Below, piece after piece: positions 2,906 to 13,222 of a stretch of 64,000 nucleotides of DNA. The stretch is from an uncultured virus (IMG/VR IMGVR_UViG_3300010342_000180) (taxonomy: Duplodnaviria; Heunggongvirae; Uroviricota; Caudoviricetes). The notes beneath the pieces were generated by a model. The model did no database searches. It saw only the letters and a program-made list of their open reading frames with translations, and was not told where the DNA came from. The first letter of the stretch is position 1. Each line of letters opens with the position of its first letter. The stretch is taken from the IMG/VR virus record IMGVR_UViG_3300010342_000180; one strand, 5' to 3'. A program made the translations under genes and the position numbers.

Positions 2906-3073
2906 AGCTCAACATTAATTTATAAAATAAATAACAACTTTTATACCAAATGGTCAACAAAAAGAGTATAGATAACGTTAACATTTATATGCTTTTATTT
3001 TTTTTCATAAATGATTTTTCAAAATATTTTTATATGAAAAAATTTTATGATATTTATATGTAAATCACAGGTT

Positions 3074-3703: not shown

Positions 3704-4015
3704 ATGAAAAAAACATTAAATGAAGAAAAAGAAAGAATTCTTACACTAATAAGAGAATTTCATGGAACTGGATATCCAAGAGGAGAAAGTGAATATATAC
3801 CAAAAACGCTTAGTTATGAAGAACAATTAGAAGATATTTTACGTAAGTGTGTCGATTCGGGTAAGTCTCTGAAAGAAGTAAGGCGCATGGTTGAGGATAT
3901 ACTTGATATAATTAATAGTGAATTACCGCCAGAAGAAAAAAAAGAAATACCGATGGATAATGACACATCAGTAACAAAAACAGGAGCAATAATGACGGGC
4001 ATTGGGGCAATGTAA
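3704..4015 (+). CDS. Phage hypothetical protein (MKKTLNEEKERI leader)
   Basis: 103-aa ORF whose N-terminus resembles that of the upstream gene. Confidence 0.65.
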   Translation: MKKTLNEEKERILTLIREFHGTGYPRGESEYIPKTLSYEEQLEDILRKCVDSGKSLKEVRRMVEDILDIINSELPPEEKKEIPMDNDTSVTKTGAIMTGIGAM

Positions 4016-4029
4016 TTTTTTTTAAAATA

Positions 4030-4061
4030 TTTGGTAATTATAAAAATAAAACTTATATTTG
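4030..4061 (+). promoter_or_regulatory. Bacteroidota sigmaA-type promoter for tRNA cluster 1
   Basis: TTTG (4030-4033), 20 nt, TATATTTG (4054-4061); matches the -33/-7 consensus. Confidence 0.8.
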
Positions 4062-4083
4062 TATTATATTAAAATATAGTAAA

Positions 4084-4167
4084 ATGAAAATATTACTCGA
4101 CATATTATCAATTTTTGAGGATAATCATCTATGGGATGATGAGGATAAATTATGTTTAGTCAGGTAA
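4084..4167 (+). CDS. Putative attenuator leader peptide, Asp/Glu-rich (MKILLDILSIFEDNHLWDDEDKLCLVR)
   Basis: 27-codon ORF between promoter and terminator with 5 Asp and 2 Glu codons, including GAT GAT GAG GAT. Its 3' part is complementary to the terminator's 5' arm. Confidence 0.75.
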   Translation: MKILLDILSIFEDNHLWDDEDKLCLVR

Positions 4168-4195
4168 ATTAATCTATTATATTCTTTTTTACACT

Positions 4196-4231
4196 AAAAA
4201 AACCCGACTACATAAATTAGTTGGGTTTTTT
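4196..4231 (+). terminator. Intrinsic terminator (attenuator) upstream of tRNA-Asp/Glu
   Basis: AACCCGACTA-cataaat-TAGTTGGGTT followed by a T tract. Confidence 0.8.
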
Positions 4232-4238
4232 GTTCTTT

Positions 4239-4314
4239 GATATATATAGGAATTTAGTGGTTATCCTCTATGGCTGTCGACCAGAAGACTCCAGTTCGAT
4301 TCTAGAATAGACCG
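4239..4314 (+). pseudogene. Degenerate tRNA-Asp(GTC)
   Basis: Anticodon arm TATGG-ctGTCga-CCAGA, T arm TCCAG-TTCGATT-CTAGA, 3' ATAGACC plus G73. The acceptor, anticodon and T stems all carry mismatches. Confidence 0.65.
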
Positions 4315-4346
4315 CTCGACTTATTTTTTTTTTCTCATGTATTTTT

Positions 4347-4418
4347 GCTCTCATCGTCTAACGGTTAGGACGGCAGGTTTTCATCCTGTAAATAGCGGTT
4401 CAATTCCGCTTGGGAGTA
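4347..4418 (+). tRNA. tRNA-Glu(TTC)
   Basis: GCTCTCA/TGGGAGT acceptor, GCAGG-ttTTCat-CCTGT anticodon arm, GGTTCAATTCC T arm; no encoded CCA. Confidence 0.93.
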
Positions 4419-4448
4419 CAAACATTTGGGGCACACGTAACGTGCAAT

Positions 4449-4994
4449 CTATATAAAAGTGAACGATAATTGATCATCAGTATAACTCAATTTATTATTA
4501 ATAATCTTAGCAGGTTTTGTATATTGGTGATCTTCTATTTTATTGACATCCATAATATGCAAGACATTCCATCCAATTGATTTTAAATAATCAGATATCA
4601 AAGAACGATGACAACGCCACCACACAGCTTCAGAACACACATATACCGTATTTTGAGTTAATGCAATTTTTTCTAATTCAGTTATTCCATTTTGAAAAGA
4701 TTCGGTTTCCATATAATCGGCATATGCACGAAACGATAAATTACGCCAAGATGTGTTTGTGGAATATGGATTAGATTTTCGTCTGCCGCCCAAATTTTTC
4801 ATATGAACATATTGAATATTATGTTTAGGTAAGATAATTTCTAGATTTTCTTTATTAAAATGTGGAAATTTCCTCGAACCTGGGAAACTTCTCACATCAG
4901 CTACACACTTCATTTGAAACAATTTTAAAATAGAAATGAATTCTTCGATGTTACGAGTAGAATGTCCAATTGTCCATATTTGAGAATGTTTCAT
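4449..4994 (-). CDS. DUF488 family protein
   Basis: Motifs IWTIGHSTR, DVRSFPGSRKFPHFN, LGGRR, CSEAVWWRCHRSLI. Confidence 0.85.
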   Translation of the reverse strand: MKHSQIWTIGHSTRNIEEFISILKLFQMKCVADVRSFPGSRKFPHFNKENLEIILPKHNIQYVHMKNLGGRRKSNPYSTNTSWRNLSFRAYADYMETESFQNGITELEKIALTQNTVYVCSEAVWWRCHRSLISDYLKSIGWNVLHIMDVNKIEDHQYTKPAKIINNKLSYTDDQLSFTFI

Positions 4995-5070
4995 AATATA
5001 TAATTGTATTAATCATTTTACAAATATAATATAAAAAAAATGCAAAAACCTAATTATTTTAATAAAATTA

Positions 5071-5964
5071 TTAATCTAATCCCACTCTAAGAGTTTCCTG
5101 AACTCTTAACATCATTTGATATTCATCTGCAGTTATATCATCAGCAAAATAATTAATGGGATTAACTGTTTTACCACGATAAATAACTTCATAATGAAGA
5201 TGATCTCCTGTAGATATACCGGTATTTCCAACAGTACCAATAATTTGACCTCGCACTACTTTTTGACCTTTACGAACTCCAATACTATTTAAATGTCCAT
5301 ATGCTGTTTCATAATCATATCCATGATTTATTTTAACATAATTTCCATATCCTAAATTTTTACCCGCCATTTCAACTATACCATCAGCGGTAGCATATAC
5401 TGGTGTTCCTACTGGAGCAACAAAGTCCATACCGTAATGAAATTTATTAATTTTATATATTGGATGAATTCTATAACTATATCCGGATGATATTCTCTTA
5501 AAATCTTTTTTTGCTACGGGTTGAATTGCAGGATAATGCCTCATTTTATCATCACTCGATATTATTTTATTAATCATATTTTTAAACCTATTAGCATTAT
5601 ATTCGATTGTACGACCAATGTTATCAAGTTTATCATTAACAGTTTCAGGTGTAATTATTGTTAATTCACTTTCATGACTATCAAATGCATCAATAATTAT
5701 ACTATCTTTTTGTTGTAATGTTTGTAATAAATAATATATTCCATCGGCTTTTTTATCTATAATATATAAATCATATTCTAATTTATTAATTTCTTTTTTT
5801 AATTTAATTTCTTTCGGGGTATTAAAAAAAACAGAAAGTAAAAAAATTAACCCAATTGTAATGATAAGTTGAATAAGAATATAAATCAAAATAGTCTTAA
5901 AATTTAAAACTATTTTATCATATTGTAATTTAATTTTATTAAATTTATATATTGGTAGTTTCAT
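5071..5964 (-). CDS. M23 family peptidoglycan peptidase with N-terminal membrane anchor
   Basis: HYGMDF, GYGNYVKINHG, YGHL and STGDHLHYEV motifs; TM segment near the N-terminus. Confidence 0.9.
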   Translation of the reverse strand: MKLPIYKFNKIKLQYDKIVLNFKTILIYILIQLIITIGLIFLLSVFFNTPKEIKLKKEINKLEYDLYIIDKKADGIYYLLQTLQQKDSIIIDAFDSHESELTIITPETVNDKLDNIGRTIEYNANRFKNMINKIISSDDKMRHYPAIQPVAKKDFKRISSGYSYRIHPIYKINKFHYGMDFVAPVGTPVYATADGIVEMAGKNLGYGNYVKINHGYDYETAYGHLNSIGVRKGQKVVRGQIIGTVGNTGISTGDHLHYEVIYRGKTVNPINYFADDITADEYQMMLRVQETLRVGLD

Positions 5965-6107
5965 ATATTAATAAGTATTTTCAAAAATTTTCCAGTAAAT
6001 ATAATTTTTTAGTGTATAAATGAAAATTTTTTCCATAGAGAACCATTTATAAGAAAATTTTTTCCATTAAAGACCACAACAATAAAAATAAAATTTTTTT
6101 CAAAACA

Positions 6108-6139
6108 TTTGGTATTTATAAAAACATTACTTATATTTG
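6108..6139 (+). promoter_or_regulatory. Bacteroidota sigmaA-type promoter for tRNA cluster 2
   Basis: TTTG (6108-6111), 20 nt, TATATTTG (6132-6139). Confidence 0.8.
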
Positions 6140-6164
6140 TATCGGATTTTAATTGGTTAATACG

Positions 6165-6239
6165 ATGAAAACTTTAATGACATTACAACTCCGTCCATTA
6201 CAACATCCAGAATTGGGTGAGTGGGAGAGCCGTATCTAA
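6165..6239 (+). CDS. Putative attenuator leader peptide (MKTLMTLQLRPLQHPELGEWESRI)
   Basis: 24-codon ORF; the run TTA CAA CTC CGT CCA TTA CAA CAT CCA matches the downstream tRNA-Leu(TAA), Gln(TTG), Pro(TGG) and His(GTG). Confidence 0.8.
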   Translation: MKTLMTLQLRPLQHPELGEWESRI

Positions 6240-6273
6240 AGGTTTTTGTCAAGTAGATGGTTTTAGACTGAAC

Positions 6274-6303
6274 AACCCCACTCCAATTAAAAGTGGGGTT
6301 TTT
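6274..6303 (+). terminator. Intrinsic terminator (attenuator) upstream of tRNA cluster 2
   Basis: AACCCCACT-ccaattaaa-AGTGGGGTT plus T tract. Confidence 0.8.
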
Positions 6304-6318
6304 CGTTCTTTGAAATAT

Positions 6319-6366
6319 TGTCCTTATTGTAATTCGCAATTATTAACAACTTGTCGAAATAAGAAA
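6319..6366 (+). pseudogene. HNH endonuclease C-terminal relic
   Basis: Translates CPYCNSQLLTTCRNKK, like the CPNCHSQT..RN tail of phage HNH proteins. Confidence 0.4.
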
Positions 6367-6396
6367 ACACACTTGTAGCTCATTCAAAAAAACTAT

Positions 6397-6469
6397 CGGG
6401 TATTAGTTCAGTTAGTAGAATGCTAGTTTTGGGAACTAGTGGTCGCTGGGGCAGGACCAGCATACCCGA
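6397..6469 (+). tRNA. tRNA-Pro(TGG), non-canonical T loop
   Basis: CGGGTAT/ATACCCG acceptor, CTAGT-ttTGGga-ACTAG anticodon arm, T arm GCTGG-GGCAGGA-CCAGC. Confidence 0.85.
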
Positions 6470-6475
6470 CTATAT

Positions 6476-6550
6476 GGTGCTTGTAGCTCAGCCTGGTAGA
6501 GCGCTTGTCTGTGGAACAAGAGGTAGTGAGATCGAAGCTCACCTAGCACC
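6476..6550 (+). tRNA. tRNA-His(GTG)
   Basis: G-1 and C73 present; CTTGT-ctGTGga-ACAAG anticodon arm; T arm GTGAG-ATCGAAG-CTCAC. Confidence 0.88.
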
Positions 6551-6556
6551 CAAAAC

Positions 6557-6610
6557 TGTCTTATGGTGTAACTAGTAATACGCTTGACTATGGATCAAGA
6601 AAGTAGAGGT
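6557..6610 (+). pseudogene. Truncated tRNA (Gln-like 5' half, anticodon ATG)
   Basis: TGTCTTA-TGGTGTAA D arm and CTTGA-ctATGga-TCAAG anticodon arm; no T arm or 3' acceptor strand. Confidence 0.55.
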
Positions 6611-6669
6611 TTCTTAACTGTTTAAGAAAACTCACAAAAAAAAAACAAATTTTAGTTCTTTGAAATTAT

Positions 6670-6971
6670 GCCGAAGTGGTGGAATTGGTAGACACGCAGG
6701 ACTTAGTTCGAAATGAGGAAAAAACAAATTGAGTGCTCTTTCTGAAAAGAGAGAAGTAGAATTCCGTAAATTCGGTGAAGGCTTAACTGCTAATACCGAG
6801 CCAATCCTGGATGTTCAGGAAGGTGTAGAGACTAGACACGGAATACCTAAGTCAAAAGATATGGTAAAGGTATAGTCCAGACCACAAACAATTAATGGTA
6901 ACGAAAGTTATAGTGGTACGAAAATCCTGTGGCCAGTAATGACCGTGTGGGTTCAAGTCCCATCTTCGGTA
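6670..6971 (+). tRNA. tRNA-Leu(TAA), intron-containing (exons 6670-6704 and 6921-6971)
   Basis: GCCGAAG/CTTCGGT acceptor. Splicing restores CAGGA-ctTAAaa-TCCTG; long variable arm; GGGTTCAAGTCCC T arm. Confidence 0.92.
6705..6920 (+). ncRNA. Group I self-splicing intron (IC3-like, 216 nt) in the tRNA-Leu anticodon
   Basis: Inserted after U34 and ends in omega-G. Core elements AAATTCGGTGAA (P), AATACCGAGC (Q), GTAGAGACTAGA (R), AAGGTATAGTCC (S). Confidence 0.9.
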
Positions 6972-6978
6972 CAAATTT

Positions 6979-7050
6979 ACCCTTGTAGTGTAACGGCTAA
7001 CACACCAGGTTTTGGTCCTGGAAATCTTGGTTCGAGTCCAGGCGAGGGTT
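6979..7050 (+). tRNA. tRNA-Gln(TTG)
   Basis: ACCCTTG/CGAGGGT acceptor, CCAGG-ttTTGgt-CCTGG anticodon arm, GGTTCGAGTCC T arm. Confidence 0.92.
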
Positions 7051-7073
7051 TCTTAACTGTACTGTAAAAATGA

Positions 7074-7219
7074 TGGCATGGAGAAAAAATATCTCTAATA
7101 TTAGATCATAAAAATGGTATTCATAATGATAATAGAATTGAAAACCTAAGAATATTTGTCCTAATTGTAAGGCTACACCTCCAACACATTGCGGTAAAAA
7201 TAATAAAAACAAAAAATAA
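7074..7219 (+). pseudogene. Frameshifted HNH endonuclease remnant
   Basis: ISLILDHKNGIHNDNRIENLR, then a frameshift, then CPNCKATPPTHCGKN. Confidence 0.75.
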
Positions 7220-7254
7220 ATTTGGAAAATTCATAATTTCTTTTTATCTTTGTT

Positions 7255-7527
7255 TTGTTTAATTTAAAAATGATATGTGGGATGGGTCAGAAATTTTATT
7301 CGGAAATAGGAGAACGAGATGTTCTCAGTCCAAAAATTTTAAAGATTTCGAAAGAATGTATAAAAGATCGAAGAAGAATTTATATTCCTGAACTTCGTCT
7401 TATTGCGTATAGTAAAGCAAATGAAACAATTGAAGAAACAAGGCGAAGATATTTCAGGAATACTCTTACTTTTCGTAATTTGGCAAATTCAGATAAAAAT
7501 AATGATAAAAATAAAACTGGAAAATAA
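7255..7527 (+). CDS. Hypothetical protein
   Basis: ORF follows a TTTG...TATCTTTG promoter; the true start may be ATG 7270. Confidence 0.5.
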   Translation: MFNLKMICGMGQKFYSEIGERDVLSPKILKISKECIKDRRRIYIPELRLIAYSKANETIEETRRRYFRNTLTFRNLANSDKNNDKNKTGK

Positions 7528-12810: not shown

Positions 12811-13199
12811 GGGGGTGACATGGTATTGATTGGCGTACAACGGATCAATGGGCAAGTGGTCAGATATCTTCTATGACTTAAAACTATGAAGGTAACATTT
12901 AAATGGCAACATTTATAAAAACATGGAAATTGCAGGTTTACTTGCAAAATCTAGCGTAGTAGCCTAATCTCAGAAAGGGCTCTACAAGGGGTCGGAAGAA
13001 CCTATCAACAGAATCTCCGAAGCTGATACTGCTTATAGTATCAAAAGTTGTTTGTGGCCCGTCTTAAACGAACCATCGAAAGTTGCGGATAACAATAGAG
13101 GCTGGAATCCGATATTTGTCGATTATGAATAATCGAATAAACTTGTAGTCCATTTATTCTTTGACGAGCAAGACTCGCGTTCGATTCGCGACACCTCCA
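12811..13199 (+). ncRNA. ssrA: tmRNA
   Basis: GGGGGTG/CACCTCC-A acceptor with G3-U70; T arm TCGCG-TTCGATT-CGCGA; tag frame 12905-12967 GNIYKNMEIAGLLAKSSVVA*. Confidence 0.9.
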
Positions 13200-13222
13200 C
13201 TAATTAATTTAAAGTCATTATG

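Follow-up and report, generated by a model that had tools for sequence, protein, structure and literature searches.

Why phages carry tRNA genes, and when these genes are used, is an open question, and it is posed in concrete form by a stretch of 64,000 nucleotides from an uncultured virus assigned to the Caudoviricetes (IMG/VR record IMGVR_UViG_3300010342_000180; the whole stretch is called the window here). Two clusters of tRNA genes lie within positions 4030 to 7050 of the window, and each is headed by a short open reading frame (ORF) followed by an intrinsic terminator. An earlier note on this DNA had proposed that ribosomes stalling on the short ORF let transcription pass the terminator, so that the phage tRNAs are made on demand. 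That proposal is supported by the conservation of the ORF, the concordance between its codons and the downstream tRNAs, the covariation of an alternative RNA pairing and the near-absence of internal promoters. All of these were computed here, together with the parts of the operon heads, their order and spacing and the identity of a boxA element behind the terminator. On this evidence both clusters are quite probably tRNA operons under ribosome-mediated (leader-peptide) transcription attenuation.

Architecture and recurrence of the operon heads

The elements of the two operon heads are the following.

4030..4064, plus strand: promoter 1, Bacteroidota sigmaA type, with the -33 TTTG at 4030-4033, the -7 box at 4054-4061 and a predicted start near 4066
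4084..4167, plus strand: leader ORF 1, ATG start, 27 codons and stop, with 6 Leu, 5 Asp, 2 Glu, 1 Trp and 1 Val
4157..4164, plus strand: antiterminator strand 1, in the final codons of leader 1, pairing with 4203-4210 (7 bp, one internal mismatch)
4197..4231, plus strand: intrinsic terminator 1, 14 pairs and a T run, -16.4 kcal/mol, z -4.2, equalled by 0 of 200 shuffles
4232..4240, plus strand: boxA 1, a match to GTTCTTTGA that abuts the T run of terminator 1
6108..6142, plus strand: promoter 2, with the -33 element at 6108-6111, the -7 box at 6132-6139 and a predicted start near 6144
6165..6239, plus strand: leader ORF 2, ATG start, 24 codons and stop, with 5 Leu (four of them TTA or TTG), 2 Gln (CAA), 2 Pro (CCA), 1 His and 2 Arg (CGT)
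6219..6225, plus strand: antiterminator strand 2, within leader 2 and 14 nt before its stop, pairing with 6277-6283 (7 bp)
6274..6304, plus strand: intrinsic terminator 2, hairpin at about 6274-6300 and then a T run, -16.3 kcal/mol, z -3.5
6305..6313, plus strand: boxA 2, a match to GTTCTTTGA
6655..6663, plus strand: boxA 3, a match to GTTCTTTGA inside the second array, 6 nt before tRNA-Leu and with no terminator before it

Both clusters therefore have a single order, in which a Bacteroidota-type promoter is followed by a short ORF, an intrinsic terminator, GTTCTTTGA and the tRNA genes; the common architecture described in the earlier note was recovered in all its parts, including leader ORFs of 24 to 27 codons. 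The 24 codons of leader 2 are counted from its ATG, and the ORF program lists the same frame from a TTG at 6153. The two 35-nt promoter stretches are nearly identical (a pattern search gave two matches in the window against 0.00 expected, and none in 100 shuffles). They match the sigmaA consensus of Bacteroidota, given in an excerpt of PMC9723704 as TTTG near -33 and TAnnTTTG at -12 to -5. The transcription start positions are predictions from these boxes. The proposed complementarity of the distal leader codons was only partly borne out. It holds for the 5' arm of the terminator at both clusters, and no notable complementarity to the terminator loop was found at either of them.

The same arrangement recurs far beyond the window. 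Units were gathered from uncultured viral contigs by scanning for a terminator end joined to boxA and for boxA itself, with strict patterns replacing a loose motif scan that had given mainly chance matches inside genes. This yielded 62 non-redundant units, 49 of them with a candidate leader, in 20 leader clusters; setting aside two clusters with mis-called leaders (L007 and L064) left 47 usable units in about 18 leader families. In these units the leader has a median length of 24 codons (16-49), the hairpin begins a median of 23 nt (16-36) after the stop codon and the first tRNA lies a median of 17 nt after the boxA core. A -7 box is present within 60 nt upstream of the leader ATG in 43 of the 47 units, but in the gap between the terminator and the first tRNA in only 1 of 30. 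Promoters downstream of the terminators, which would have spoken against the earlier note, are thus almost absent.

This geometry bears on a first alternative, namely that the ORF and terminator form an independent mini-gene or small RNA, that the tRNAs are transcribed from other starts and that the likeness to an attenuator is coincidental. Such an arrangement would accommodate the units in which the first detectable tRNA is far downstream, and the ends of the attenuator transcript are indeed predictions from sequence. Against it stand the scarcity of -7 boxes in the gap, the T run that abuts boxA, the short distance from there to the first tRNA, and boxA itself, which acts as RNA and needs an upstream start. 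The statistics on codon concordance and covariation given below would also be left unexplained, and we give this explanation hardly any credence.

An ORF of at least 12 codons that starts with ATG and ends 15-40 nt before the hairpin was found in 48 of the 50 units with tRNAs, whereas dinucleotide shuffles gave 8.1 of 50 (sd 2.6, maximum 15). Short ORFs upstream of tRNA arrays are thus conserved in related and unrelated viral contigs. Conservation of the encoded peptide, or a synonymous bias in the leaders, was also considered and proved weak by codon-position and by pairwise counts; it is the open frame that is conserved and not the peptide. Translation of the leaders is suggested by a frame kept open at a fixed place.

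A second alternative is a switch made of RNA only, or dependent on a factor, in which the ORF is incidental and the effector is either a tRNA bound as in a T-box or an antiterminator protein of phage or host. Such a switch could be worked by any effector able to sequester or release the antiterminator strand, and the poor conservation of the leader peptides would be expected. Yet such a switch would not account for the near-constant presence of the ORF or for its fixed stop-to-hairpin distance, and a concordance with many codons has no role in a T-box-like design. An Rfam scan of 3900-7300 (E <= 1) matched only tRNAs and, weakly, a plastid UTR (untranslated region) family on tRNA-Glu. Within the same range and threshold neither the T-box covariance model nor any of the curated leader families (His, Leu, Thr and Trp leaders and similar) gave a match, and at E <= 0.1 no family other than tRNA remained. 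A switch of this kind is very unlikely.

The attenuation reading calls for two mutually exclusive structures, and these are present: the antiterminator is specific and covarying, and it falls within the final codons of the ORF. The duplex between the 5' arm of a terminator and the 80 nt that precede its own hairpin has an energy of -14.1 kcal/mol, against -9.5 (sd 0.53) for permuted pairs (z -8.6, with none of 100,000 permutations as low). The antiterminator strand ends 1-28 nt upstream of the stop codon in most units. Across 22 related units, once aligned, 96.6% of the 176 cells of the antiterminator helix are paired, as against 43-67% for slid controls and 96.0% for the terminator helix itself, and compensatory changes occur at 2 of the 8 antiterminator pairs. 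In the family alignment of leader 2 with five relatives the antiterminator pairs in 97.9% of 48 cells, and the A-U of all five relatives is replaced by G-C in the window only; this compensatory change is not significant by itself (6 sequences, 85 of 500 shuffles). The covariation of antiterminator and terminator that the earlier note had suggested looking for was thus seen both in the 22-unit family and in that of leader 2. In the leader 1 family one pair is, by eye, A-T in the window and T-A in L007. Formation of the antiterminator would depend on the position of the ribosome on the leader.

Codon match between leaders and arrays

The tRNA genes were called with ARAGORN at default settings and with Rfam; the exon ends of tRNA-Leu(UAA) and the anticodon of tRNA-Pro were read by eye.

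About 4245..4320, plus strand: decayed remnant of tRNA-Asp(GTC), whose anticodon region and 3' part align to the tRNA-Asp of relatives
4347..4419, plus strand: tRNA-Glu(UUC), found by ARAGORN and by Rfam (60 bits)
6397..6469, plus strand: tRNA-Pro(UGG), with an unusual T loop, found by Rfam only (50 bits) and missed by ARAGORN
6477..6551, plus strand: tRNA-His(GUG), found by ARAGORN and Rfam
6557..6630, plus strand: tRNA-like stretch below threshold (Rfam 23.5 bits, gathering score 29)
6670..6971, plus strand: tRNA-Leu(UAA), with a group I intron of about 216 nt (about 6705-6920) inserted after U34
6979..7050, plus strand: tRNA-Gln(UUG), found by ARAGORN and Rfam

If the leader monitors the supply of the tRNAs that it controls, its codons should be those that the array can read. 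Concordance was tested with the window left out and one representative per leader cluster, permuting arrays among leaders 100,000 times. At the amino-acid level 274 of 562 leader codons matched their array, against 168.9 expected (sd 15.7; z 6.7, reached by none of the permutations). At the codon level, under wobble rules, 224 matched against 130.6 expected (z 6.8), and two stricter definitions of the array gave z values of 5.7-7.0. The codon-anticodon concordance anticipated in the earlier note is thus present against permuted controls. It does not merely reflect phage-wide amino-acid usage, because the long ORFs flanking the leaders on the same contigs match the arrays less (0.27, against 0.49 for the leaders; leaders higher in 13 of 14, Wilcoxon p 3e-4). 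The fraction of matching codons is 0.54 far upstream of the antiterminator, 0.53 just before it and 0.30 within and after it.

Besides the window, four genomes carry two units each. For all eight of their leaders the match is better to the leader's own array than to the second one, with counts for own and other array of 24/3, 10/5, 8/7, 20/2, 8/7, 14/2, 14/1 and 9/4. These data bear on a third alternative, in which the same hardware carries a generic signal: the leader would sense the capacity for translation as a whole, for instance host shut-off or the availability of ribosomes, and the codon match would be secondary. The leaders do mix codons for up to eight to ten amino acids with no runs of a single codon, and a switch with only two states, as is argued for below, reads through whenever no ribosome arrives. 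A generic sensor, though, requires neither a concordance at the codon level nor its confinement to the region upstream of the antiterminator, and leaders within one genome would have no need to differ, each fitting its own array. We regard generic sensing as unlikely and prefer attenuation that responds to the codons of the array.

Leader 2 of the window follows the rule. Codons for Pro, His, Leu or Gln make up 10 of 23, compared with a background of 0.175 in the long ORFs of the window (P 0.003), and 9 of 23 are readable by the four anticodons of the array (P 0.002). Five homologues of this leader were found (L465, L422, L430, L433 and L444); their arrays comprise Pro, His and Gln tRNAs (in L465 Arg as well), and codons for Gln, Pro and His abound in the leaders. 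The window is the one member of this family whose array includes tRNA-Leu(UAA), and the one member with five Leu codons in its leader.

Leader 1 belongs to a different family, with homologues in L465, L042 and L007. The arrays behind them are Asp-Glu-Leu-Leu-Ala-Leu in L465, Asp-Glu-Val-Leu-Trp in L042 and, in L007, Asp followed by Val-Leu-Leu. When the window is compared with L465, Ala codons appear in the leader only where the array has a tRNA-Ala. L465 is a syntenic relative of the window (its peptidase is 75% identical) and has retained both leaders; in L466 the array head lies at the contig end with an unreadable leader, and no second cluster was found. The earlier note had regarded the two leaders as unrelated and the logic as having arisen twice independently. 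The leaders are indeed unrelated, but an independent origin in this genome does not hold, as each belongs to a family with relatives elsewhere; they are therefore inherited designs that were not invented in the window genome.

A cultured phage offers a further example. Cellulophaga phage phi4:1 (NC_021788.1) has two units of leader and terminator within its tRNA array.

7066-7196 and 8026-8170 in L467 numbering (about 87065-87195 and about 88025-88170 of the record): units A and B of phi4:1, leader and terminator without boxA

In both units the terminator stands directly before the first tRNA. Unit A has a 22-codon ATG leader in which 11 of 21 codons match, the 11 being consecutive, and it is followed by tRNAs for Pro, Glu, Gln, His, Leu, Leu and Arg. 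The leader of unit B, annotated as hypothetical protein gp075, matches its own array (Ala, Lys, Ile, Gly, Met, Asp, Thr, Val, Arg, Met and Tyr) at 23 of 26 codons and that of unit A at 4 of 26. No recognisable unit was found in the region of gp076. As Cellulophaga baltica and phi4:1 form a cultured pair that carries such units, the idea is directly testable.

BoxA, RNA-library contigs and other features of the window

The window has five occurrences of the 9-mer GTTCTTTGA, where 0.71 would be expected. On the plus strand there are three, immediately upstream of tRNA genes (4232, 6305 and 6655), and the remaining two are on the minus strand, within or adjoining coding sequence. It is one position away from the boxA consensus GYTCTTTAANA, which an excerpt of PMC5725501 gives for gamma-proteobacteria. 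In viral contigs the conservation reaches over 17 nt, and this 17-mer has at least 117 exact matches there and at least 122 in bacterial genomes. Among the matches listed, 73 of 80 bacterial record titles are Bacteroidota by name, genus names having been assigned to the phylum by us. At 15 of 20 bacterial loci examined with Rfam the 17-mer is situated between the 16S and 23S genes, downstream of the spacer tRNAs and 61-198 nt short of the 23S gene, where the boxA of rRNA spacers is classically located; the other five gave no rRNA or tRNA match. Five contigs of Bacteroidales or Prevotellaceae metagenome-assembled genomes (L315, L318, L334, L357 and L300) have an exact copy of the 17-mer with neither an rRNA nor a tRNA match, at Rfam gathering scores, within 1.2 kb of it. 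By its sequence, GTTCTTTGA is the rRNA-type boxA of the host phylum, a site of NusB/NusE antitermination, and at tRNA operons it would likewise be expected to bind Nus factors.

The possibility that GTTCTTTGA is a promoter was ruled out. In viral contigs the motif stands a few nucleotides after -7 boxes or after tRNA 3' ends, so boxA is part of the transcript, and its identity strengthens the read-through route, since boxA acts as transcribed RNA. Internal copies after tRNA 3' ends, such as that at 6655, are also found in viral contigs and in L465. None of 125 boxA cores among the bacterial 17-mer matches listed, most of them in rRNA operons, is preceded by a terminator. In L465 the boxA core of cluster 2 (reverse strand, about 5085-5125) has T at the only C of the consensus, and at cluster 1 the T run and boxA are 12 nt apart. 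Two further recurrent folded elements, of -18 to -23 kcal/mol, stand directly before boxA in many viral contigs (for example L177, L179, L204, about 55 nt before its boxA at 3001, and L002 at about 1900-1953).

The window is near-complete (at least 93% of sampled words) in 15 DNA runs from anaerobic digester, wastewater, activated sludge, biogas and soil metagenomes. Small shares of it are contained in four RNA libraries (X16-X19), which consist of contigs bearing neither end nor strand information. In X16, exact contigs at 6166-6258, 6248-6326 and 6297-6398 jointly cover the region from leader 2 through the terminator and boxA and along the spacer as far as tRNA-Pro, and no single piece reaches 31 nt beyond the T run in both directions. 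These contigs are compatible with read-through and do not prove it; stretches without contigs carry no weight. In one X16 contig (depth 3) 38 nt are missing across the 5' half of terminator 2 (window 6258-6297); the gap may reflect a variant, or else an artefact of assembly or of reverse transcription at the hairpin. RNA-library contigs also cover the group I intron of tRNA-Leu(UAA). This intron matches Intron_gpI (RF00028) at 6716-6898 with 41.1 bits, below the gathering score of 50 (E 2.6e-9 in a search of 351 nt), and the whole tRNA-Leu gene is 72.5% identical over 320 nt to LR756501, a 735-kb uncultured phage record.

Several traces of former tRNA genes surround the working ones. The tRNA-Asp remnant has lost its 5' acceptor and D arm and is detected neither by ARAGORN at default settings nor by Rfam. 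The tRNA-like stretch at 6557-6630 is probably a decayed duplicate or pseudogene; an exact 14-mer is common to 6608-6621 and the 3' end and trailer of tRNA-Gln at 7047-7060 (2 matches against 0.03 expected). Judged by eye, the 84 nt that separate boxA 2 from tRNA-Pro (6314-6396) contain something like the 5' part of a tRNA. At the matching place L465 has two tRNA-Arg genes, and leader 2 still has its two CGT codons. Farther downstream ARAGORN called a tmRNA gene at 12811-13200 with a 20-residue tag. A PHROGs search of 24 window ORFs returned an M23 peptidase or endolysin-like protein, thymidylate synthase, glycosyltransferases and a weak minor-tail match, and no structural phage hallmark gene was found among these 24. 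The window is probably phage DNA, judging from its relatives in viral collections.

The proposed switch and its place among known systems

A number of observations weigh against attenuation as the explanation of these operon heads. Some concern the evidence at large. The unit set was built on motifs derived from the window and covers boxA-bearing phages of Bacteroidota type only, covariation within families may stem from few events and the low-depth X16 contigs over 6166-6398 may be DNA carry-over. Leader translation and a response of read-through to tRNA supply are predictions. Others concern individual units: the ORF is absent in 2 of 50, the L007 leader has no ATG, unit B of phi4:1 has a GTG start only and several members of the largest family have no detected tRNA for 600-1400 nt past boxA. 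In the first 16 leader codons of that family 4, 7 and 10 variable sites fall at codon positions 1, 2 and 3, and pairwise codon differences are 172 synonymous and 599 non-synonymous. Nor was a conserved upstream partner found for the antiterminator strand, the pairing of cognate and permuted sequences being alike (z -0.11). In the absence of such an anti-antiterminator the units would be two-state switches, and untranslated leaders should read through, unlike those of the trp type. An anti-antiterminator, however, defines the trp type and not the attenuation mechanism in general.

The remaining points concern cluster 1 of the window. Its antiterminator fold is weak (-8.2 kcal/mol, z +0.87), and the enrichment of the leader in the amino acids of its cluster, which had been claimed for both leaders and stands for leader 2, fails for leader 1 as regards Glu, the amino acid of its sole working tRNA (2 of 26 codons, P 0.46). 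With its 2 of 26 matches leader 1 fits its own array no better than that of cluster 2 (7 of 26). If the decayed tRNA-Asp is counted too, 7 of 26 codons match (P 0.03), and 15 of 26 fit the Asp, Glu, Val, Leu and Trp set of L042. The array, in which only tRNA-Glu works and which is followed directly by genes on the opposite strand, is shorter than those of L465 and L042. Read in this light, cluster 1 is an eroded copy, and it may be losing its function.

With these points in the balance, the proposed mechanism would operate as follows. Host RNA polymerase would start at the Bacteroidota sigmaA promoter and transcribe the short ORF, whose last codons carry the strand able to pair with the 5' arm of the terminator about 23 nt beyond the stop codon. 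A fast ribosome would reach the stop and cover the antiterminator strand, the terminator would form and transcription would end after about 160 nt. A ribosome lagging at the upstream codons, which are largely those read by the tRNAs of the array, would let the antiterminator form instead, and polymerase would read through. The transcribed boxA would then presumably recruit NusB/NusE together with the remaining Nus factors, allowing polymerase to complete the untranslated tRNA array. The net effect would be a negative feedback in which phage tRNAs are made when their own codons are decoded slowly. Stalling of the ribosome as the event that shifts the fold, and the conditions that would trigger read-through, are what we infer from the arrangement; the phage probably makes more tRNA when ribosomes read the codons of the array slowly. 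Signs of leader-peptide attenuation at amino-acid operons are described for the host phylum in an excerpt of PMC9723704.

If the leader does read the codons of the downstream tRNAs, the tRNA supply of the phage is regulated by demand and is not constitutive, leader-peptide attenuation extends from metabolic genes to tRNA genes and it is linked with Nus/boxA antitermination in one operon head. From leader composition one would also obtain a simple rule by which to find such units in sequence and to predict which tRNAs are important to a phage. A bolder view, possible but on balance doubtful, is that phage tRNA arrays are codon-resolved homeostats in which the leader is a census of the array's own anticodons. 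Loss of host tRNAs through starvation, phage-induced decay or anticodon-nuclease defences would then switch on the exact replacement set, and boxA would secure its full-length transcription. If true, the units would be the sensing arm of a phage counter-defence widespread in Bacteroidota phages and the first tRNA genes known to be controlled by translation of their own codons. Full-text literature searches, in which subscription journals were not covered, found no paper on leader-peptide attenuation of tRNA genes.

Known leader-peptide attenuators control the trp, his, leu, thr, ilv and pheA operons or genes of E. coli and Salmonella. The general features of attenuation at amino-acid operons (outlined in an excerpt of PMC1183508) are shared by the window units: a short translated leader, here a predicted one, with regulatory codons, a terminator that competes with an antiterminator and a decision made by the position of the ribosome. 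The window units differ in that they control tRNAs and not enzymes, in that their leaders mix many amino acids and mirror the array, and in being two-state, with no conserved 1:2 anti-antiterminator, followed by boxA and borne by a phage.

The pheST attenuator of E. coli, which governs the phenylalanyl-tRNA synthetase operon, is similar in that a component of translation is controlled by the translation of its own cognate codons, but it is cellular and controls a synthetase gene through a single amino acid. The T-box leaders of Firmicutes bind uncharged tRNA directly and have no ORF. They too sense the state of a particular tRNA through the choice between terminator and antiterminator, whereas the window units have an ORF and gave no T-box match. 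The whiB7 attenuator of actinobacteria uses an upstream ORF to sense translation stress. Its ORF and terminator resemble the window units in switching on a translation-related response when ribosomes slow, and it differs from them in being cellular, in controlling a transcription factor and in having no codon match to downstream tRNAs. Finally, rRNA boxA/Nus sites and the lambda nut sites, as presented in excerpts of PMC2800207, PMC4807359 and PMC5725501, likewise have boxA in a transcribed leader before untranslated RNA genes, and the boxA of the Bacteroidota 16S-23S spacer is identical to that of the window. What sets the window apart from the rRNA operons is that its boxA, with its predicted Nus binding, immediately follows a conditional terminator and serves a tRNA operon carried by a phage.

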